The position numbers were made by a program, and so were the translations under genes. A stretch of 64,000 bases of DNA from an uncultured Spirochaetaceae bacterium (GTDB lineage Bacteria > Myxococcota_A > UBA9160 > UBA4427), in NCBI GenBank assembly GCA_964515335.1, contig CAZETS010000012.1, positions 19,974 to 83,973 on the forward strand, read 5' to 3'. The notes under the pieces are model-generated. The model searched no databases. It was given only the letters and a program-made list of their open reading frames with translations, and was not told the origin of the DNA. Within the stretch, counting starts at the first letter, position 1, and every line of letters begins with the position of its first letter. This document shows positions 1,031 to 63,905 of the stretch, in pieces.

Positions 1031-1372
1031 ATGTCGCCGGAGCAGCCGGCCGCGCCGCCCGATCTGACCGGCCAGCAGCGCAAGTGGCTGCGCGGCCGCG
1101 CCCACGCCCTCAAGCCCATCGTCCACGTCGGCGAGGCAGGGCTGAGCGACGCCGTCCTCGCGGCCGCCGACGCCGCGCTCGGCGACCACGAGCTGGTGAA
1201 GGTGCGCCTCCACGACCCCGCGGACAAGAAGGCCGCGGCCCGGCAGCTGGCCGAAGCGACGCATGCGGCGCTCTGCGGCCTCGTCGGCCACACCGTCATC
1301 CTCTACCGGCCGCGGGCCGACGGGCCGCGCCTCGAGGTGCCGGGCCTGACCGACGCGAACGCGAACGGCTGA
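1031..1372 (+). CDS. yhbY: YhbY/CRM-domain RNA-binding protein
   Basis: LTGQQRKWLRGRAHALKPIVHVG...HELVKV...VGHTVILYR signature. Alternative GTG start at 992. Confidence 0.9.
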   Translation: MSPEQPAAPPDLTGQQRKWLRGRAHALKPIVHVGEAGLSDAVLAAADAALGDHELVKVRLHDPADKKAAARQLAEATHAALCGLVGHTVILYRPRADGPRLEVPGLTDANANG

Positions 1373-1446
1373 CCGGCCCGCCGCTCGCGGGTCACTCCCT
1401 GTTCAGCTCCGGCGCGTCCGGGGTCGCACACCCGGCACGCCGAGAC

Positions 1447-1776
1447 CTAGCGGGGCTGCCTGGTTGCGACCGCGGGCGGCGTCGCGGCCGCGGGCGTGCG
1501 GTACATGTGCTGGTACGAGACCGCATCGGGCCCCCAGCGCCACTCCTGCGGCAGCGGCGGAGCCGGCGACTCGGCGCGCACCGTATTCGAGGCGGGAATC
1601 TGCAACGCCGCAAAGCCCGCGGAGATCAGGGCAGCCACGACCGCTGCCAGAATCAGGTCGTGATACCCCTCGAGTGACGCCGCCACGCGCTCGGCGAGCG
1701 GAAGCCTGCTGCTAGCCGAAGACCTCGCCCCCTTGGCGACGAAGCCGTCGGAACCAATCGAACTCGAACCCACCAT
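1447..1776 (-). CDS. Small hypothetical single-pass membrane protein
   Basis: GGAGGAG RBS before the ATG at 1776; hydrophobic segment LILAAVVAALISAGFAAL; candidate sigma54 promoter upstream. Confidence 0.6.
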   Translation of the reverse strand: MVGSSSIGSDGFVAKGARSSASSRLPLAERVAASLEGYHDLILAAVVAALISAGFAALQIPASNTVRAESPAPPLPQEWRWGPDAVSYQHMYRTPAAATPPAVATRQPR

Positions 1777-54634: not shown

Positions 54635-56320
54635 TCAGGGCCTTTCGGCTCGTCGCGTATAGACGACCAGCGCAGGATCCGAGCCGCCCGGCACGGGCGC
54701 AGCGAACCAGTGGGTGCGGTCGAGCACCCGGCCCCGGTAGAGCTCGGGCAGGCTGTTGTAGGGCGTATCGGCGACGTCGAGGATACGAGACGCGTAGCCC
54801 CCGGCGAGCAGGTAGCGGCGCACCTCGCCGAGACGCTTCGGGTGGCCGGTTCGGGGAATCACGACGTCGGGCCGCTCGAGCCGCTCGGTGCGGATCCGTT
54901 CCGCGTCGGCGGCGTGGAAGCGTCCGACGACGCGGCTGCCGAGATAGAACATCAGCGGCTCGGCCTCATAGTTGGTGGCCAACACCAGCTGCTCGGGGCG
55001 TGGGTGCTCGCTCGAAAGCACCGAGACGATCCGATCGATCGGCCCCTCGACGGGCGCGACGATCTCGCGCACACGCCCGGAGAGCTCCCCGCCGCGCACG
55101 GCGAGCATCGCCGCGACGGCGATCCCGAGCACCGCGAAGACCCTGCGTCGCGACGGCGCGCCGGGGGCGGCGGCCGACAGCCGGGCCAGCAAGACCTCGC
55201 CGTCGAGCACAGCGGCCAGCGCCAGCACGGGCCCGACCGCCACGAAGTAGCGCTCGAAGAAGATCGGGTTGGCGGCCCCCACCAGTCCCAGCCAGGCGGC
55301 CAGCCGCAGCAGCACGAGCGCCGCGCCGCGGGCGGGCTCGTCCGGGGCGGCGCCGCTGCGCGTGAGCCGGAGCGCGCCTTCGAGCAGCAGCACCAATGGC
55401 AGCCACTCCCAGCGCAGCAGGTAGACGAGCAGGTGGCCGAGGTTGCCCAGGTAGAGGGCCGGCCCGAACGACCAGCGCTCGGCCAGAGCTCCGGACACCG
55501 CGAGCAGGTCGAAGCGCATCGCCAGGTGAATGCCGACCGCCGCGGCGACGGCCACCGGCGCGAGCAGCGCGAGCGTGCGGCGCGTGGCCGTGGCGTCGCG
55601 CCGGCCCGCGGCCCCCGGGCCCCGCCTCGCGCGCAGCCGGTCGAGCGCCGCCTCGCCGACGATCCACGCCATCGTGGCCGCCGCGGCCGGAAAGAAGACG
55701 TTGAGCAACACGACCAGGTCGACCGCCAGGGCCGCGGCCAGCAGCACCTCTCGCAGTCGCCCGCCGCCTCCGCGCCCGAGCGCGCGCACGAGCGCGACGG
55801 CGATTCCGACGCCGGCCACCATCGGCCCGTAGTACCGCACCTCGCGCAGGTGCAGCTGCAGCGACGTCGAGGCGCAGAGCAGCAACAGGAAGGCGGTGGC
55901 GGCGGGCAGCGCACTGCCGGACCGCCCGGCGAGCGGGCCGCGAAAGGCGCCGACGAGCAGGGCCAGACCGAGGACGCCGCTCAGCACGAACGGCAGACGC
56001 ACCCGGGCGGTGCGGGCGTACGGGTCGTCGTGGCCGGCCGACCAGGCGACCCCCGCCGCTGCCAGGTAGTACTGACCCCAGAGGCTGCCGAGGTAAGCGT
56101 CCGTCTCGGCGTCGACGGCGACCTCGAGCGGCAGCCCCATGCCGTACACGACGCCCTCGGCGCCGTGCACCTTGGGGTAGCCGTGATCGAGCACGCGGCG
56201 GCCGAACATCGCCGTCTCGCCCTCGTCCTGCCAGAAGAGCGGGTGTCCGATCGAGCCCAGCTGCAGCAGCGCGTAGAGGGACGCCGCCGCGACCAAGGCC
56301 ATCAGGCGCGTGCGCTTCAC
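54635..56320 (-). CDS. GT-C-like multi-pass membrane protein
   Basis: FWQDEGETA after TM1, RLPFVL, EVRYY, FERY. Start uncertain. Confidence 0.65.
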   Translation of the reverse strand: MKRTRLMALVAAASLYALLQLGSIGHPLFWQDEGETAMFGRRVLDHGYPKVHGAEGVVYGMGLPLEVAVDAETDAYLGSLWGQYYLAAAGVAWSAGHDDPYARTARVRLPFVLSGVLGLALLVGAFRGPLAGRSGSALPAATAFLLLLCASTSLQLHLREVRYYGPMVAGVGIAVALVRALGRGGGGRLREVLLAAALAVDLVVLLNVFFPAAAATMAWIVGEAALDRLRARRGPGAAGRRDATATRRTLALLAPVAVAAAVGIHLAMRFDLLAVSGALAERWSFGPALYLGNLGHLLVYLLRWEWLPLVLLLEGALRLTRSGAAPDEPARGAALVLLRLAAWLGLVGAANPIFFERYFVAVGPVLALAAVLDGEVLLARLSAAAPGAPSRRRVFAVLGIAVAAMLAVRGGELSGRVREIVAPVEGPIDRIVSVLSSEHPRPEQLVLATNYEAEPLMFYLGSRVVGRFHAADAERIRTERLERPDVVIPRTGHPKRLGEVRRYLLAGGYASRILDVADTPYNSLPELYRGRVLDRTHWFAAPVPGGSDPALVVYTRRAERP

Positions 56321-56485
56321 GGGCAGGCCCCACCCACCCTTGCTCGCCGGCCCATGCTCATCCGAGGCGTCCTTCCCACCAGCGGCCGCGCGACCGCGAC
56401 CCGGCCGCGCCGACTCCCTGCCGGACGCCGCAAGAGTACGAGCCCCAAGGCAGATCTCCAGGGTCGGGGTAGAATCGCGGGCGGC

Positions 56486-57268
56486 ATGGCGCAGACCACC
56501 ATCGTCGTTCCCTGCTTCGACGAGGCCGACCGACTGCCCGTCGACGCCTTCGCCGAGCATGCCCGCAAGCACGTCGACACCGACTTCGTCTTCGTGAACG
56601 ACGGCAGCCGCGACCGCACCCTCGGTGTCCTGCGCGACCTCGAGGCACGGGCGCCCGAGCGCATCGCGGTGCTCGACCAGCAGCCCAACGCGGGCAAGGC
56701 GGAGGCGGTTCGCATCGGCATGAACGCTGCCTTCGAGCGGGGCTGCCGCTACGCGGGCTACCTCGACGCGGATCTCGCGGCCCCGCTCAGCGAGATCGCC
56801 CGCCTGCGCGGCGTGCTCGAAGACCACGAGCAGGTCGAGATGGTGTACGGCGCGCGGGTGCAGCTGATGGGGCGGCGCATCCAGCGCAGCGGCGTGCGCC
56901 ACTACCTCGGCCGCGTGTTCGCGACGCTGGCCTCGGAGACGCTCGGCCTCGCCATCTACGACACCCAGTGCGGCGCCAAGCTCTTCCGTGTGTCGCCGCT
57001 CGTGCGCACGCTCTTCGCCGAACCGTTCGTGGGCGGCTGGATCTTCGACGTCGAGATCCTCGCCCGGCGCATCGCGGCGGGTCGCGACGGCGGGCTTCCG
57101 CCGGTCGAGGAAGCGATCTACGAGCTTCCGCTCGACACCTGGGTGGACGTCGCGGGCTCGAAGGTCCGCCCGGGCGACTTCGTCCGCGCCGCCCTGGCGA
57201 TGTGGCGCATTCGGAGGCGCTACCTCCGGCCGGGCACAGCAGGAGACGCCGCGACGGGGCGCGGGTGA
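56486..57268 (+). CDS. GT2 dolichyl-phosphate glucosyltransferase-like enzyme
   Basis: VVPCFDE, NDGSRD, GKAEAVRIG, LDADLA, DTQCGAKLF, WIFDVE. Confidence 0.9.
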   Translation: MAQTTIVVPCFDEADRLPVDAFAEHARKHVDTDFVFVNDGSRDRTLGVLRDLEARAPERIAVLDQQPNAGKAEAVRIGMNAAFERGCRYAGYLDADLAAPLSEIARLRGVLEDHEQVEMVYGARVQLMGRRIQRSGVRHYLGRVFATLASETLGLAIYDTQCGAKLFRVSPLVRTLFAEPFVGGWIFDVEILARRIAAGRDGGLPPVEEAIYELPLDTWVDVAGSKVRPGDFVRAALAMWRIRRRYLRPGTAGDAATGRG

Positions 57269-59265
57269 CTCCTCGATTCGGGCCGAAGGGGCTCGGCCGG
57301 TTGCAGGCCGCCGGCTGGGGGCTGCTGATCGTCGTCTGTGCGGTCGCCGTGGTGCGGGCGGCGCTCTTCGACGACGGCGTCCCGTTCGTGACGGCGGGTG
57401 ACACGGGAAAGTGGATCACGACCCCGACCCGCCCCACCGCCGACCTGATCGCGGTGATGCCAGACGATCCCCCGCGCTTCACCTTCGTGAAGCGCTTCGA
57501 CGGCACGCGTCCGGACGGGGCGGCCGTGCTTCGCGGACGTGCGCTGCGCACGGTCGCGATCGAGCTGAACGGGACCAGGGTCGAGGTGCCGGGCGACGGC
57601 GCCGGCTGGAAGCGCGGCTTCGAGATCGACGTGGCGCCCCTCCTGCGCGACGGGCGCAACGAGCTGCGCGCGACGGTTCGGAACGTGCACGGGCCTCCGC
57701 TGCTGCAGCTGTCACTCGACGACGGCGCCGGGCACAGCATCGAGACGAATGCGGATTGGCAGGTCGTGACGCCCGCAGGAGGCCGTGCCGGCGCAGTGAT
57801 CGCGCGCGACACCGCGATGCATCCCGAATCGCGCCTGCTCGCACCCTCGTGGCGGGTCGCGCGCGACCAGGCCCCGGTGCTGGTCGCGATCTTCGTCGCC
57901 TTCACCGCGCTGGCCTGGGTGCTCGCCCCGCGACTGTTGGCGCGCCCGTGGACGCGCGCCCCGGAAGCGACCTTCGGCGCGGTCGCGCTGCTCTGGCTGC
58001 TCGTCTACCTCACCAAGGGCACCCGGATGCCGGTCGCCCTCGGCTTCGACGCACACGCCCACCTCGCGTACATCGACTACCTCATCGAGCACCTCGCCCC
58101 GCCGACGGCCGCGTACGGTTTCTCGACCTACCACCCGCCCGCCTTCCACGGCCTGACGGCCCTGCTGGTCGGGCTGACGGGGGTCACGCCCGACAGCGTC
58201 GCCGGGCCCTCGGTCTACCGGATCGTGCCCATGCTGGCCGGCCTGGCCACGGTGTGGCTGACCGGGCGCGTGGCCCGGCGGCTCTGGCCCGACGAGGCGC
58301 TGCGGCCGACGCTCGCGATCGCCGTCGCGGGCCTGCTGCCGATGAACGTCTACATGTCGGCGTACGTCTCGAACGAGGCGCTGCACGCCGCCTGGATCAG
58401 CCTTGCGCTGCTGCTCGCCACCCACGCGATCCTCGCGGTCCGGCTCGACTGGCGGAGCGCCGCGGCGCTCGGCGGCGTGCTCGGCCTCGGGCTGCTGACC
58501 AAGTTCACCAGCCTCGCCCTGGCTCCGCTGATCGCCGCCTTCGTGGCCGCGCGGCTCTGGCTCGTCGACCGGGTCGCCGCGACGCGGGCGATCGGCGCGG
58601 GCGCCTTCGTGCTGAGCGTCGCGTTCCTGATCGCGGGCTGGTTCTACGTGCGCAACTGGATCGTCTTCGGCGATCCGCTGGTCTGGAACCTCGACGTGCC
58701 GGGCGCGGCCACCTGGTGGATGCTGCCGGGCTTCCACACCGCCGACGCGTACCTGCGCTTCGGCGAATCGCTCGTGCACCCGTTCTTCTCGGGCTTCGTC
58801 TCGTTCTGGGACGGCGTCTACTCCACGCTCTGGGCCGATGGACTCGTAGCCGGGATGATCCGCATCGCCACGCGACATCCCTTCTGGCGCTACGACTACA
58901 TGAGCCTGGTGCCGGCGCTCGCCCTGCCCGCGACCGGCCTCTTCGCCTGGGGCTTTCTGCTGTTGATCGCCCGGTCGTTTCGTGTTCGCGACACGCGGCA
59001 GAGGCTCGTGATGTCGATGCTCGCTGCGACGCTCTTCGTGCTGTCGTTCTCGCTGCTCTTCATCACCCTGCGCCTGCCCTTCTACGCCCAGGCCAAGGCA
59101 CCCTACGTGCTCGCCGCGACGTTGCCTCTCGCGATCTGCGCGGCCGAAGGCGTCGCCTGGTGGCCGCGTCAACCGCTGGCCGAACGCGCGACGCCCGCGC
59201 TCGCGGTGTACGTCGGCTGGCTCGGAACACTTGCCAGCGTAATCGTGATCGCGTTTCTCGGCTGA
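57265..59265 (+). CDS. GT-C-like membrane protein with N-terminal beta-sandwich domain
   Basis: LLRDGRNELRATV-type domain; GFDAHAHLAY, YHPPAFH, VSNEAL, LLTKFT, WFYVRNWIVFGDP, QAKAPY. Confidence 0.7.
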   Translation: MTPRFGPKGLGRLQAAGWGLLIVVCAVAVVRAALFDDGVPFVTAGDTGKWITTPTRPTADLIAVMPDDPPRFTFVKRFDGTRPDGAAVLRGRALRTVAIELNGTRVEVPGDGAGWKRGFEIDVAPLLRDGRNELRATVRNVHGPPLLQLSLDDGAGHSIETNADWQVVTPAGGRAGAVIARDTAMHPESRLLAPSWRVARDQAPVLVAIFVAFTALAWVLAPRLLARPWTRAPEATFGAVALLWLLVYLTKGTRMPVALGFDAHAHLAYIDYLIEHLAPPTAAYGFSTYHPPAFHGLTALLVGLTGVTPDSVAGPSVYRIVPMLAGLATVWLTGRVARRLWPDEALRPTLAIAVAGLLPMNVYMSAYVSNEALHAAWISLALLLATHAILAVRLDWRSAAALGGVLGLGLLTKFTSLALAPLIAAFVAARLWLVDRVAATRAIGAGAFVLSVAFLIAGWFYVRNWIVFGDPLVWNLDVPGAATWWMLPGFHTADAYLRFGESLVHPFFSGFVSFWDGVYSTLWADGLVAGMIRIATRHPFWRYDYMSLVPALALPATGLFAWGFLLLIARSFRVRDTRQRLVMSMLAATLFVLSFSLLFITLRLPFYAQAKAPYVLAATLPLAICAAEGVAWWPRQPLAERATPALAVYVGWLGTLASVIVIAFLG

Positions 59266-59337
59266 GCGCCAGGCGATCCGCAAGAACGGTCGGCGACGGA
59301 CGCCGCCCGCCCCTGCCTTGCGCGGGCGGCAGAGACA

Positions 59338-59363
59338 GAGGGGGGCGGGCGGCCGCCCCCCTC
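59338..59363. terminator. GC-rich hairpin, possible (bidirectional) terminator
   Basis: Perfect 11-bp stem GAGGGGGGCGG/CCGCCCCCCTC with a 4-nt loop between convergent units; weak U tail. Confidence 0.55.
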
Positions 59364-59368
59364 CATCC

Positions 59369-59512
59369 GGTCCCTACGAGCTGACACGCTCCTCGCGGCG
59401 AAACGTTGCCACTGAGCCCGGAGAGCGCCGGATGCGGTCGGCGCCCGGTCGCGCGGACCCGGCATTCCTTGCGGAGCCCGGTCCGCCAACCGGTGGGCTA
59501 CTCGCTGGGACC
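59369..59512 (-). ncRNA. Candidate structured ncRNA (~145 nt), family unassigned
   Basis: The ends pair (GGUCCCAGCGAGU/GCUCGUAGGGACC); internal helices have G-U pairs and a GCAA tetraloop; TATAAT sits just upstream of the 5' end. Confidence 0.65.
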
Positions 59513-59517
59513 CCGTG

Positions 59518-59523
59518 ATTATA
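59518..59523 (-). promoter_or_regulatory. Sigma70-type -10 element
   Basis: Perfect TATAAT in an AT-rich patch; predicted +1 about 59511-59513. Confidence 0.65.
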
Positions 59524-59677
59524 CACGCAACACCCGCGTCCAAAAGGGAGTACACATAACAGAGTACATACTGCACACTACTGCGTACGATCCCGCCCCT
59601 GGAGGGTCGGTGTATTCACCGAGCAGACGGTTCCCCCGGTCGGGCAGCTTGCCTTGGACGGACGACGAAGCGCTCGC

Positions 59678-61870
59678 TCAGGCCAACTCGAGGTTCGCGT
59701 AGCGCAGGACGACCGTCTTCATCCCGACACGCTCGAATCGGATCTTGAGCTTCTGATTGAGACCCGCCCCCTGCACGGCGACGATCTGCCCGGTCCCGAA
59801 GACGGCGTGACGCACGCGGGTGCCCGGCCGGATCTCGCCGTCGCCCGCCTCCTGGGAGTACGAGTAGTCGAAGCTGGCCTCGCGCGAGCCGGCGCGCGAC
59901 GCACGCTGGCCACCGCGACTGCGGCGCGACTCGAGCCGTTCGACCAGACGCTCGGGAATCTCGTCCAGGAAGCGACTCGGCGATTGGAACGAGCGCTCGC
60001 CGTAGCGCAGCCGCGCAGAAGCGTGCGTGATGAAGAGCTCGTCCATGGCGCGCGTCATCGCCACGTAGCAGAGCCGGCGCTCCTCCTCGATCGACTCCTC
60101 GTCACCCGACGAGCTGGCGTGCGGAAAGATCCGCTCCTCCATGCCGGACAGGAAGACCACCGGAAACTCGAGGCCCTTCGCCGAGTGGACCGTCATCAGC
60201 GACACGCGCTCGGAGCGATCCTCCCAGCCGTCGAGATCGGAGATCAGCGCCACCTGATCGAGGAAGAGCTCGAGCGGCGTGCGCTCTTCGTCGGCGATCT
60301 CCTCGTTGGCGGCCGCGAAGTCGCGGGCGCTGGCGATCAGCTCGAGCAGGTTGTCGCGGCGCGACTCGGCCTCGGGCGTCGACTCGCGGGCGAGCGCGTC
60401 GAGGTAGCCGCTGCGGTCGAGCACGCGCCCGATGATCTGGTCGAGCGGGGCGCCGGCGATCTCCTCGCGCAGGGCCGCGACCAGTTCGAGAAACGCACGG
60501 ACCTTGCCCGCCGAGCGCGTGCCGCCGCCTTCGACCAGGCGCTCGAGGGCGCCAGTCATCGGCAGGCCCTGCTCGGCCGCCAACGCGGCGGCGCGCTCGA
60601 CCGTCGTCTTGCCGATGCCGCGAGCCGGCCGATTCACGATGCGCAACAGCGCCTGGTCGTCCTGAGGGTTCACGAGTATGCGCAGGTACGCCATCGCGTC
60701 CTTGATCTCGGCGCGGTCGTAGAAGCGCACGCCGCCCACGACCGTGTAGGGCACGTCGTATTTGAGCAGCTCTTCCTCGAATGCCCTCGACTGCGCGTTG
60801 GTCCGGTAGAGGACCGCGAAGCCGCCGTACGATCGTCCGTCCGCCTTCGCCTGCATGATCCGGCGCACGACGAACTGCGCCTCCTCGCGGTCGTCTTCGG
60901 CCTCGAAGAAGTGGATCGGGTCGCCGCCCTCGCGCTGGGTGACCAGGCGCTTGTCCTTGCGGGCGACGTTGTTCTCGACCACCGCGGAGGCGCCGGACAG
61001 GATCGGCTGGGTCGAGCGGTAGTTGCGCTCGAGCTTGATGACGGTGGCGTCGTCGTAGTCGTTCTCGAAGTCGAGGATGTTGCGCACGTCCGCCCCGCGC
61101 CAGGCGTAGATGGACTGATCGGGGTCGCCCACCACGCAGAGGTTGCGGTGACCGGCGGCGAGCAGCTTGACGAGCTCGTACTGCACTCCATTGGTGTCCT
61201 GGTACTCGTCGACGAGCACGTACTGCCAACGCCGCTGGTAGAACTCGAGCACGCGCGGGTGCTGCCGGAAGAGCTGCACGGTGGCGAGGATGAGGTCGCC
61301 GAAGTCGAGGGCGTTGGCGTCGACGAGGAGCTTCTGATAGCCGGAGTAGATGCGCGCACAGAGCTCGTCGTCGATGTCGTAGGCCTCCTCGAGGGCGGCC
61401 GCGGGGAGCTTGCCGGCGTTCTTCCACTGGTCGATCCGCCAGCGGATGCGGCGCGGATCGTGGGCCTTCGGGTCGAGATCCTGGCGCCGCAGCACCTCCT
61501 TGATGACGCCGAGGCTGTCGGCGTCGTCGTAGATCACGAAGCCGCGGCTGCGGCCGAGATGCCCGATGTCGTGGCGCAGGATGCGCACGCAGATCGAGTG
61601 GAAGGTGCCGATCGCGAGGTCGCTCGCCTCGGGGCCGAGCAGCTTCTCGACCCGCTCCTTCATCTCGCCGGCGGCCTTGTTGGTGAAGGTCACCGCCAGG
61701 ATCGCGTCGGCCGGAATGCCGCAGCCGCCGATCAGGTAGGCGACGCGGCTCGTCAGCACGCGCGTCTTGCCGCTGCCGGCGCCGGCGAGCACGAGCAGCG
61801 GCCCCTCGGTGCACTCGACGGCACGCCGCTGCTCGGGGTTCAATCCCTCGACGATCGACTCGGTGAGCAA
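59678..61870 (-). CDS. uvrD: UvrD/PcrA ATP-dependent DNA helicase
   Basis: AGAGSGKT, TFTNKAA, VDEYQD, GDPDQSIY, NYRS, HSAKGLEF, EERRLCYVAMTRA, C-terminal Tudor-like domain; TTG start after GGAGG. Confidence 0.95.
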   Translation of the reverse strand: MLTESIVEGLNPEQRRAVECTEGPLLVLAGAGSGKTRVLTSRVAYLIGGCGIPADAILAVTFTNKAAGEMKERVEKLLGPEASDLAIGTFHSICVRILRHDIGHLGRSRGFVIYDDADSLGVIKEVLRRQDLDPKAHDPRRIRWRIDQWKNAGKLPAAALEEAYDIDDELCARIYSGYQKLLVDANALDFGDLILATVQLFRQHPRVLEFYQRRWQYVLVDEYQDTNGVQYELVKLLAAGHRNLCVVGDPDQSIYAWRGADVRNILDFENDYDDATVIKLERNYRSTQPILSGASAVVENNVARKDKRLVTQREGGDPIHFFEAEDDREEAQFVVRRIMQAKADGRSYGGFAVLYRTNAQSRAFEEELLKYDVPYTVVGGVRFYDRAEIKDAMAYLRILVNPQDDQALLRIVNRPARGIGKTTVERAAALAAEQGLPMTGALERLVEGGGTRSAGKVRAFLELVAALREEIAGAPLDQIIGRVLDRSGYLDALARESTPEAESRRDNLLELIASARDFAAANEEIADEERTPLELFLDQVALISDLDGWEDRSERVSLMTVHSAKGLEFPVVFLSGMEERIFPHASSSGDEESIEEERRLCYVAMTRAMDELFITHASARLRYGERSFQSPSRFLDEIPERLVERLESRRSRGGQRASRAGSREASFDYSYSQEAGDGEIRPGTRVRHAVFGTGQIVAVQGAGLNQKLKIRFERVGMKTVVLRYANLELA

Positions 61871-62075
61871 TGGATCTGCCTCCGCGTGGACGCCCTTCGC
61901 GGCGACGCGAGCGGGCGCGATGGCGCTCTGGAGGCCTGGGGGGAACCGGCAGGGTATGGGTTGCTGGTCCTGCGTCAACCTCGCCGGCGCAGCGCCGGCG
62001 AGGAGACCCGGGACGAGGACCCTCGGGCTCGCCCTGTACCGGCGGATCGCCGTGTGGGCGGCCGATCGCCGCCCG

Positions 62076-63905
62076 CTATTCGACCGTGACGCTCTTGGCG
62101 AGGTTCCGCGGCTGATCGACGTCGGTGCCGCGCAGCGTCGCCACGTGGTAGGCGAGCAGCTGCAACGGGATGGTGGCGAGGACCGAGGTGAGGAAGTCGC
62201 CGAGGTCCTCGATGTAGATCACTTCGTTGGCCTTCTCGGCGATCCCGTCGTCGCCCTCGGTCGCGATGGCGATCACCCGGCCGTCCCTGGCGCGCACCTG
62301 CTCGAGGTTCGAGACCAGCTTGTCCTGCAGCGGGCTGCGGTTGGCGATCACGACCACCGGCATGTTCTCGTCGATCAGCGCGATCGGTCCGTGCTTCATC
62401 TCGCCCGCCGCGTAACCCTCGGCGTGGATGTAGGAGATCTCCTTGAGCTTGAGCGCCCCCTCCATCGCGATCGGGTACATGATGCCGCGGCCGAGGAAGA
62501 GGAAGTCTTCGGCCTTGAAGTAGCTCCGCGCGATCTCCTCGATCTGCGCGTCGAGCTGCAGGGTGCGCTCGACGAAGCGCGGCAGCCGCATCAGGTCGTG
62601 CAGGCGATCGCGCATCTCGTCCCGGCCGATGCGGCCGCGCACCGCCGCCAGCTTGAGGGCGACGAGATACAGCCCGACCACCTGGGTGACGAAAGCCTTG
62701 GTGGAGGCCACCCCGATCTCGGGACCGGCGTGGGTGTACAGCACGTCGTCGCTCTCGCGGGCGATCGTCGACTCGCGCACGTTGCAGACGGCCAGCACAC
62801 GCGCGCCCTGGGACTTGCCCTCGCGCAGCGCGGCGAGCGTGTCGGCCGTCTCTCCCGACTGCGAGACCGGAATCACCATGCAGTTCGAGCCGAGGATGGG
62901 CTGGCGATAACGGAACTCGCTGGCCAGATCGACGTCGCAGGGGATGCCCGCGAGCTGCTCGATCATGTACTTGCCTACCATGCAGGCGTACGACGCCGTC
63001 CCGCACGCGATCAGGCTGATCGAACGCAGGCCGTCGGCGAACTCGCGCGTGATCTCGATGCCGTCGAGGTCGATCTCGGCATCGTTGACCCGGGTGCCGA
63101 TCGTGTCGGTGATGGCGCGCGGCTGCTCGAAGATCTCCTTCTGCATGAAGTGGTCGTAGCCACCGCGCTCGGCGGAGACCGGGTCCCACTGCACGGTCAT
63201 GAACTCGCGGTCGATCGGGCGCCCCTCGGCGTCGACCACCTGCACGCCGTCCTCGCTGAGCACCGCGAAGTCGCCGTCCCAGAGCGAAATGATCTCGCGC
63301 GTGTAGGGCAGGATGGCGGGGATGTCGCTACCGAGGAACGCCTGCTTCTCGCCCTGCCCCACGATGATGGGGCTGCCGCCGTTCTTCGCGGCGACGAGGC
63401 AGCCCGGGTCGCTCTCGCAGATGGCGCCGAACGCGTAGGAGCCGGTCAGACGCGCGCAGGCCTCGCGCACGGCGACGAGCAGGCCCTTGCCGGCCTGGAC
63501 GCCCTCGTCGATCAGGTGGGCGATCAGCTCGGTGTCGGTGTCGGACTCGATGGTGGCGCCGGCCGCCTCGAGCTCGGCGCGGATCGCCGAGTAGTTCTCG
63601 ATGATGCCGTTGTGGACGATCGCCACCGAGCCGGCGCGGTGCGGATGGGCGTTGCGCTCGGAGGGCTTGCCGTGGGTGGCCCAGCGGGTGTGCCCGATGC
63701 CAACGACGCCCTGCAGCGGCTGCTGACGCAGCGCGTGCTCGAGGTTGATCAGCTTGCCCTCGGCACGACGGACCTCGATCTGGTCGCCCTCGTAGACGGC
63801 GACGCCCGCCGAGTCGTAGCCCCGGTACTCGAGGCGCCGCAGCCCGTCGATCAACACGTCCACTGCCCGGTGCTCGAGCCCGATGTAGCCGACGATTCCG
63901 CACAT
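62076..63905 (-). CDS. glmS: Glutamine--fructose-6-phosphate aminotransferase
   Basis: MCGIVG, GHTRWATHG, SQSGET, EMKHGP, DQPRNLAKSVTVE. Confidence 0.98.
   Translation of the reverse strand: MCGIVGYIGLEHRAVDVLIDGLRRLEYRGYDSAGVAVYEGDQIEVRRAEGKLINLEHALRQQPLQGVVGIGHTRWATHGKPSERNAHPHRAGSVAIVHNGIIENYSAIRAELEAAGATIESDTDTELIAHLIDEGVQAGKGLLVAVREACARLTGSYAFGAICESDPGCLVAAKNGGSPIIVGQGEKQAFLGSDIPAILPYTREIISLWDGDFAVLSEDGVQVVDAEGRPIDREFMTVQWDPVSAERGGYDHFMQKEIFEQPRAITDTIGTRVNDAEIDLDGIEITREFADGLRSISLIACGTASYACMVGKYMIEQLAGIPCDVDLASEFRYRQPILGSNCMVIPVSQSGETADTLAALREGKSQGARVLAVCNVRESTIARESDDVLYTHAGPEIGVASTKAFVTQVVGLYLVALKLAAVRGRIGRDEMRDRLHDLMRLPRFVERTLQLDAQIEEIARSYFKAEDFLFLGRGIMYPIAMEGALKLKEISYIHAEGYAAGEMKHGPIALIDENMPVVVIANRSPLQDKLVSNLEQVRARDGRVIAIATEGDDGIAEKANEVIYIEDLGDFLTSVLATIPLQLLAYHVATLRGTDVDQPRNLAKSVTVE

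Follow-up and report, generated by a model that had tools for sequence, protein, structure and literature searches.

The question raised by this locus is whether a strongly folding stretch of DNA, which lies on the minus strand downstream of a uvrD gene in a 64,000-nt segment (hereafter the window) of a contig from an uncultured member of the Myxococcota, encodes an RNA of its own and, if so, to which kind of RNA it belongs. To our knowledge, very few non-coding RNAs have been described in the Myxococcota, and the uncultured marine family to which this genome belongs is not known to have contributed any. Based on sequence comparison among genomes of the family, the locus is assigned to an RNA family that is new but falls within a familiar general category, the small non-coding RNAs. 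The minus-strand features that had been picked out in a first-pass annotation of the window, namely a TATAAT box, a 13-position stem with one mismatch, a set of inner helices and an 11-bp hairpin, are all present (Table 1), and RNAfold produced the same layout, in which P1 encloses P2 (with P3 and P4 inside it) and P5 and is followed by the 11-bp hairpin. The folding energy of the 186-nt stretch on this strand is -114.8 kcal/mol (z = -5.04), a value equalled by none of 200 dinucleotide shuffles, and the MFE of the 147-nt body without the terminator has a z-score of -4.50. The RNA body can be modelled as a compact five-helix fold, in which P1 encloses the three-way junction formed by P2, P3, and P4 together with the P5 hairpin.

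Table 1. Positions in the window of the predicted RNA, its helices and motifs, and the flanking genes.
Feature	Position	Strand	Remarks
Whole predicted RNA	59338-59512	minus	Closing stem P1 to terminator hairpin, ~175 nt
TATAAT, -10-like hexamer	59518-59523	minus	Ends 5 nt before P1
P1, 5′ strand	59500-59512	minus	13 positions including one A·A mismatch; single-sequence fold
P1, 3′ strand	59369-59381	minus	GUAGGG here, GUAGAG in most relatives
P2, 5′ strand AGCCC	59495-59499	minus	Single-sequence fold
P2, 3′ strand GGGCU	59415-59419	minus	Single-sequence fold and alignment
P3 peripheral hairpin	59445-59493	minus	49 nt; GCAA loop here; length and sequence variable; inside P2
P4 hairpin GCGCCG/CGGCGC	59425-59444	minus	6 bp; inside P2; apical loop 59431-59438; CAUCC 59430-59434
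UCUCC 3′ of P4	59420-59424	minus	In this genome only UC can lengthen P4
P5 hairpin UGGCA.CGUUUC / GGAGCG.UGUCA	59382-59411	minus	Carries conserved CCGCGAGGAG at 59389-59398
Terminator-like hairpin	59338-59364	minus	11 bp; 4 bases after P1; G-rich 5′ arm, C-rich 3′ arm
Upstream gene, UvrD/PcrA-type helicase	59678-61978	minus	Pfam UvrD-helicase 1.4e-94, UvrD_C 3.6e-76, PcrA_UvrD_tudor 6.5e-09
Convergent 765-aa ORF	56968-59265	plus	Adjoins the RNA in 13/13 loci; context only

Homologues of the RNA were found in 13 genomes, and all of them are flanked by the same two genes, with uvrD upstream on the same strand and the convergent 765-aa ORF downstream at 13 of 13 loci. The 765-aa ORF matches no Pfam or NCBIfam family and is regarded as a putative membrane protein because its C-terminal sequence is hydrophobic, as judged by eye only. 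The copies next to uvrD share 48-69% identity across the 13 RNA-bearing genomes, and the ORF is also kept in relatives that lack the RNA. In the neighboring 852-aa ORF (54710-57268, plus strand), a family-2 glycosyltransferase domain is confined to the last third of the protein (residues 595-764), and the maximal frames of this ORF and the next one overlap by ~300 nt, so that at least one of the two start codons lies further downstream than listed. Immediately 5′ of uvrD and in the same orientation is a 404-aa ORF (61975-63189, minus strand) that belongs to no Pfam or NCBIfam family. Tandem-like ~20-nt repeats occur in two relatives, G003 (locus L002, ~1330-1470, minus strand) and G005 (locus L009), in the DNA that separates the terminator hairpin from the convergent gene, and the window is without them.

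The first-pass annotation had been unable to match the RNA to tRNA, SRP RNA, 6S RNA, tmRNA, or RNase P, and searches against known families gave the same outcome. The 4227 models of Rfam 15, including those for 6S, SRP, RNase P, tmRNA, and Y RNA as well as riboswitches and ribozymes, yielded no match in the 64-kb window at the gathering thresholds. At E <= 10, only two chance matches were obtained in the region 59200-59700, located on and just downstream of the terminator hairpin, and at E <= 5 the loci of the 12 relatives gave six weak matches, none of which coincided with the RNA in more than one genome. ARAGORN detected no tRNA or tmRNA gene in the region 59000-59900. The earlier suggestion that the RNA might be new is consistent with the lack of an Rfam family match in both the window and the 12 relatives. 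Retron msr-msd RNAs, which are common in myxobacteria, were considered and rejected, since no reverse transcriptase gene is adjacent and Pfam identified no RT domain in the flanking ORFs. Those parts of the full-text literature that were covered by a search contained nothing relevant to the RNA.

A BLAST search of 40 relatives with a 193-nt stretch returned one match only, a congeneric copy, and a single-sequence model built on the window's fold (R1) was discarded as too specific, as it matched only its own genome among 68 genomes of the family and scored the congeneric copy at 20.5 bits. For these two reasons, the DNA downstream of the uvrD orthologues was collected from the 40 relatives, and in eight of them a GCAUCC-loop hairpin, UCUCC, CGAGGAG, GUAGAG, and a GC hairpin were recognized. 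A covariance model of the 3′ half of the RNA (R2) was then scanned over the 68 family genomes and gave 13 clear copies, with scores of 37.6-81.6 bits, in 13 of the genomes and 5 of the 19 genera. The weak R2 matches that were inspected comprise those of at least 27 bits from the family scan, five in number (27.4-31.3 bits; G060, G018, G015, G056, and G055), and seven from the order's other families (26.0-29.9 bits); both sets were rejected because they lie in coding-looking sequence and lack a terminator, and no credible match to R2 was found in 151 genomes sampled from the other 11 families of the order.

A full-length model (R3), in which only P1, P2, P4, and a short inner P5 helix were annotated, was built from eight training sequences and scored three non-training members at 40.8-48.3 bits. 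Over the 68 family genomes, it matched 11 genomes with one match each (E <= 1.7e-6), and there was no other match at E <= 0.01; with this result and the single copy that BLAST detected in the window's own genome, a repeat or mobile element such as REP or MITE was rejected. Two divergent members from the window's genus, G001 and G002, were scored at noise level by R3 (~10-11 bits) and were counted as members because of their conserved gene order, the motifs they have in common with the others, and the 55-60 bits assigned by R2, which had been trained on both. Motif patterns, which are able to match only 8 of the 13 known sequences, were also scanned over 185,579 species genomes, and the seven loci detected are all from MAGs and all among the known members. 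In metagenomes, the pattern scan found two contigs that carry, as compared by eye, the same sequences as G019 and G047.

On a UvrD tree calculated from the C-terminal 240 residues of 37 genomes, the 13 carriers are located within one clade of 16 rows (support 98/92), and their distribution corresponds to three changes of state, a number as low as which was reached in none of 500 label shuffles; one gain and two losses could account for it. Two species of genus g17 cleanly lack the entire cassette, their uvrD stop being placed ~17 nt from the stop of the convergent gene, and the same short junction is present in more distant genera. Since the cassette-less genomes keep uvrD, the RNA is considered an accessory, clade-specific gene that is not required for uvrD. 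Within the searches made, the RNA family is limited to one family of uncultured marine Myxococcota, and its 13 sequences come from five genera only and are mutually related, not independent.

When the sequences were folded singly, the P4 hairpin and the terminator hairpin appeared in 13 of 13 MFE structures, and the full P1/P2(P3, P4)/P5 layout was obtained in nine of the 13, although the sequences of P1, P2, P3, and the outer P5 stem differ between genera. The layout is varied in G019, G051, and G047, and in G002 the fold is a single long rod that carries P4 at its tip. A hairpin at the position of P3 was seen in nine of the 13 folds with unrelated sequences, and the outer stems of P5 differ in sequence between genera with their pairing kept; for P3 and the outer P5 stem, the support comes from single-sequence folds only. 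The remaining helices were assessed in an 11-sequence alignment (A9), which was fitted to R3 and the pair counts of which consequently lean towards that structure. In A9, 87.8% of 263 cells pair, in comparison with 36-41% when the partners are slid by 1-3 columns, and both sides are changed in 15 of 26 pairs. None of 500 column shuffles reached the observed pairing, both-side changes, or covariation score, a control that does not provide a probability because the sequences are related.

RNAalifold, run afresh on A9, recovered P1, P2, and an extended P4, to which it added a 3-bp outer helix formed in most relatives by GGG on the 5′ side of P4 and UCC of UCUCC. Both sides of this outer helix are altered to AGA/UCU in genus g19; its pair 77-104 is GC in seven sequences, AU in two, and other in two, and its pair 79-102 is GU in eight, AU in two, and other in one. 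With the outer P4 helix included, 88.2% of cells pair (36-46% when slid) and both-side changes are found in 16 of 29 pairs; homologues downstream of uvrD, for which a search had been proposed in the first-pass annotation, exist in 13 genomes. The both-side changes are distributed over P1 (five of eight modelled pairs), P2 (five of nine pairs), and P4 with its outer extension (five of eight pairs, 93% of cells pairing). The inner pairing of P5 is ambiguous, as either UCG/CGA or CC-GCGA-GG with a GNRA-type loop can be drawn. The possibility that UCUCC serves as a free anti-Shine-Dalgarno sequence, or pairs with GGAG of P5, was rejected because the covariation favors UCC-GGG pairing at the 5′ side of P4; GGAG is absent from 3 of the 13 sequences.

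The same helices contain 39 G·U cells versus 6 A·C cells, and this asymmetry assigns the RNA to the window's minus strand, in agreement with the strand originally claimed; canonical cells in A9 amount to 87.8% on the uvrD strand versus 75.3% on the other. Furthermore, a second strain that is ~95% identical to the window is represented in seawater metagenome contigs of three further studies, one contig spanning the whole stretch. Of the 18 substitutions that distinguish this strain in the region 59266-59677, only two fall in the 175-nt RNA, at neighboring bases of the unpaired CAG that links P2 to P5, versus 16 substitutions and 2 indels in the 237 nt of flanking intergenic DNA (Fisher p = 0.006 for the substitutions). 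The differences of this strain are thus concentrated in the two intergenic spacers that flank the RNA. Covariation, the G·U strand test, and strain-level conservation identify the locus as a genuine structured minus-strand RNA, and its structure, strand, purifying selection, single copy, fixed synteny, and absence from Rfam have been demonstrated by comparison of sequences.

As for what this RNA does, the explanation favored here, to which we give about an even chance, is a clade-restricted, independently transcribed small RNA of ~175 nt that acts in trans via the invariant CAUCC apical loop. Transcription would start at the base that opens P1, or only a few bases away from it, and would end at the GC-rich terminator hairpin. 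The RNA would then act in trans with the exposed CAUCC of the P4 loop as its contact surface, and this contact would most probably consist of short base pairing with mRNAs, which is the default mechanism for such apical loops. The CCGCGAGGAG motif of P5 and the GUAGAG strand of P1 could hold the scaffold or bind a partner. The trans action and the role of the loop are inferred.

Regarding the 5′ end, a sigma-70 consensus scan found no promoter in the window, and it was silent at TATAAT for want of a suitable -35 hexamer. In 11 of the 13 genomes, P1 is preceded at 5-9 nt by a hexamer that begins with TA, and -35 elements are poor outside genus g17. In this genus, TTGC(C/A/G)(A/G) and TA(C/A)(A/T)G(A/G), separated by 16 nt, are conserved; the conservation starts ~40 nt before P1, and the sequence further upstream of this promoter-like block diverges. 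In the ~95%-identical strain, TATAAT is intact, and positions 59515 and 59517, between TATAAT and P1, differ. This upstream conservation may represent the phylogenetic footprint of a promoter, and it is not proof of one; we infer that the RNA is probably transcribed independently from its own promoter, with the 5′ end at or near P1. A sigma-54 promoter was rejected because of unsuitable spacing, as judged by eye. In an AT-richer stretch 30-90 nt upstream of P1, an inverted repeat, (A/G)GTA-N1-2-TAC(T/C), is located ~55-60 nt before P1 in two sequences only, the window (59540-59600, minus strand) and G003 (L002, ~1700-1760, minus strand), and could be a putative regulator site. At the 3′ end, all 13 genomes have a GC-rich hairpin after P1, in which G predominates in the 5′ arm (GGAGGGG-like) and C in the 3′ arm. 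In genus g19, a U7 tail directly follows the hairpin in one genome, and a U-run is located ~15 nt after it in the other; the hairpin of the window has no clear U-tract.

The alternative to be weighed against independent transcription is that the RNA is a structured 3′-UTR element of uvrD, that is, the tail of the uvrD mRNA or a piece cut from it, which would have no promoter of its own and would serve as a stabilizer, a terminator, or a processed sRNA. At 13 of 13 loci the RNA directly follows uvrD in the same orientation, the promoter scan was negative, and no convincing terminator hairpin was seen by eye in the spacer of 160-330 nt between the two; as no strong terminator was noticed in this spacer, the RNA may belong to the uvrD 3′ UTR, either exclusively or in addition to being transcribed separately. 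On the other hand, the spacer between uvrD and P1 is long and poorly conserved, with 11 of the strain substitutions, whereas conservation begins ~40 nt before P1 at the -35/-10-like boxes of g17, and the AT-rich TA-hexamer is kept at a fixed distance from P1. In addition, the cassette-less genomes retain uvrD with an intergenic gap of 17 nt, indicating that uvrD needs no such element. An origin solely as a uvrD 3′-UTR element has a low but appreciable probability.

For the favored trans-acting small RNA, the most conserved element is CAUCC of the P4 apical loop, followed by CCGCGAGGAG in P5, a motif conserved in alignments A7 and A8, and by the GUAGAG strand of P1. CATCC is present without change in all 13 sequences, and in each of them CAUCC has a predicted probability of 0.77-1.00 of being unpaired. 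The complement of the 21-nt loop-plus-junction stretch was searched for genome-wide, and the best trans match contained four mismatches, which corresponds to the noise level; inspection of the start regions of neighboring genes as targets was unproductive. Mimicry of an anticodon loop by the P4 loop was dropped because the loop size varies among 7, 8, and 9 nt. Against a trans-acting sRNA, the invariant loop of 5 nt is short for a seed, and a compact body of several helices closed by a stem is commoner in protein- or ligand-binding RNAs than in base-pairing sRNAs, a direction in which the possible GNRA-type GCGA loop of P5 also points.

A protein-binding or protein-sequestering RNA would offer its partner a recognition surface made up of the CAUCC loop, the CCGCGAGGAG motif in P5, and the GUAGAG/CUCUAC stem, and this would be consistent with the compact, stem-closed body, with short blocks whose sequence is kept in spite of their pairing, GUAGAG of P1 among them, and with the empty mRNA complementarity search. 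However, it is a rather improbable explanation, as there is no candidate partner, the neighbors being the same with and without the RNA so that no gene appears to have been co-gained; the single GGA-type motif is unlike multi-site sponges; and GCAUCC shows no genome-wide enrichment in hairpin loops (194 of 4340 occurrences, versus 104 of 2280 and 252 of 4340 for control words). The RNA could also be, in place of an ordinary base-pairing sRNA, a free-standing sensor or binder of a metabolite, an ion, or a dedicated protein, and as such the first of a new compact multi-helix RNA class in marine Myxococcota, with the CAUCC loop, the GCGA loop of P5, and the three-way junction forming a tertiary core. 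This proposal, too, has a low probability in our estimate.

More doubtful still is an orphan riboswitch-like ligand sensor, which would set read-through of the hairpin and thereby antisense transcription into the convergent membrane-protein gene. Such a role could be suggested by the multi-helix junction, the conserved junction and loop nucleotides, and the variable peripheral helix, as well as by P1 directly abutting the terminator hairpin with the same convergent gene always opposite. A riboswitch leader had been thought unlikely in the first-pass annotation because the next gene is convergent, and this arrangement holds at 13 of 13 loci; the RNA therefore does not occupy the 5′ leader position of a riboswitch, and the lack of any sense-strand gene further 3′ excludes a cis leader. 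In each of the 13 MFE folds the terminator forms alongside the P1-P5 body, which means that the hairpin is not a switchable platform, and neither an expression platform that excludes the aptamer nor a conserved alternative pairing that excludes the terminator was found. Furthermore, the convergent gene is unchanged in relatives without the RNA.

The absence of any function, with the fold explained as chance GC-rich pairing or as a decaying remnant, is very improbable; the genome is GC-rich, and the opposite strand of the 186-nt stretch also beats its shuffles (z = -3.53), but the covariation, the G·U asymmetry, the low strain substitution rate, the motifs shared across five genera, and the clean separation of the model scores contradict it. 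A small protein-coding gene on either strand is barely conceivable: although the reverse complement of the conserved loop-to-junction stretch resembles a ribosome-binding site followed by ATG, and a sense frame of 9-13 codons with an ATG or GTG start ends at a conserved UAG in 5 of the 13 genomes, the opposite-strand peptides have lengths of at least 10 to 26 aa (three of them continue beyond the end of the extracted sequence) and show no relationship from one genus to another, the sense frames are not kept among congeners (a 2-nt indel in G019 versus G051) and have no start in most genomes, the cores vary in length (122-146 nt) by steps that are not multiples of three, and the helix substitutions are compensatory.

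The locus thus provides a well-supported new RNA family, with 13 sequences from five genera, a helix model, an assigned strand, and evidence of purifying selection, which can be used for RNA family databases and for the annotation of MAGs. Its narrow distribution limits the immediate impact. Because base-pairing sRNAs typically have simpler folds, the RNA is a reasonable candidate for probing and for partner searches.

Among known systems, riboswitch aptamers include orphan ones that control antisense or non-coding transcripts, and the present RNA resembles riboswitch aptamers in the position of P1 beside the terminator, the multi-helix junction, the conserved junction and loop nucleotides, and the variable peripheral helix. 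In contrast to these aptamers, it lacks a sense gene under its control as well as a mutually exclusive expression platform, and it matches none of the Rfam riboswitches. The 3′-UTR-derived sRNAs of enterobacteria share the terminator of the upstream mRNA and are produced with or without an internal promoter. The RNA described here likewise follows directly 3′ of uvrD in the same orientation, and its end coincides with the one hairpin that precedes the convergent gene, whereas it is separated from uvrD by a non-conserved spacer of 160-330 nt, is preceded by promoter-like boxes, and belongs to a cassette that is dispensable for uvrD. The best-known myxobacterial sRNA, Pxr, is small and confined to a myxobacterial sub-clade, and the two RNAs are therefore alike in being small, non-coding, and limited to a sub-clade; compared by Rfam and by clade, they differ in that the present locus matches no Rfam model and its clade is a family of uncultured marine MAGs. 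Finally, RsaE/RoxS of Firmicutes and the AbcR-type sRNAs of alpha-proteobacteria are intergenic, terminator-ended RNAs whose C-rich apical loops contact their targets. The present RNA is unlike them in having a closed five-helix fold instead of a string of hairpins, an invariant loop of 5 nt, and no Rfam match, and it shares with them a single-copy position between protein genes, a promoter-like box, a terminator hairpin, and an exposed pyrimidine-rich loop.
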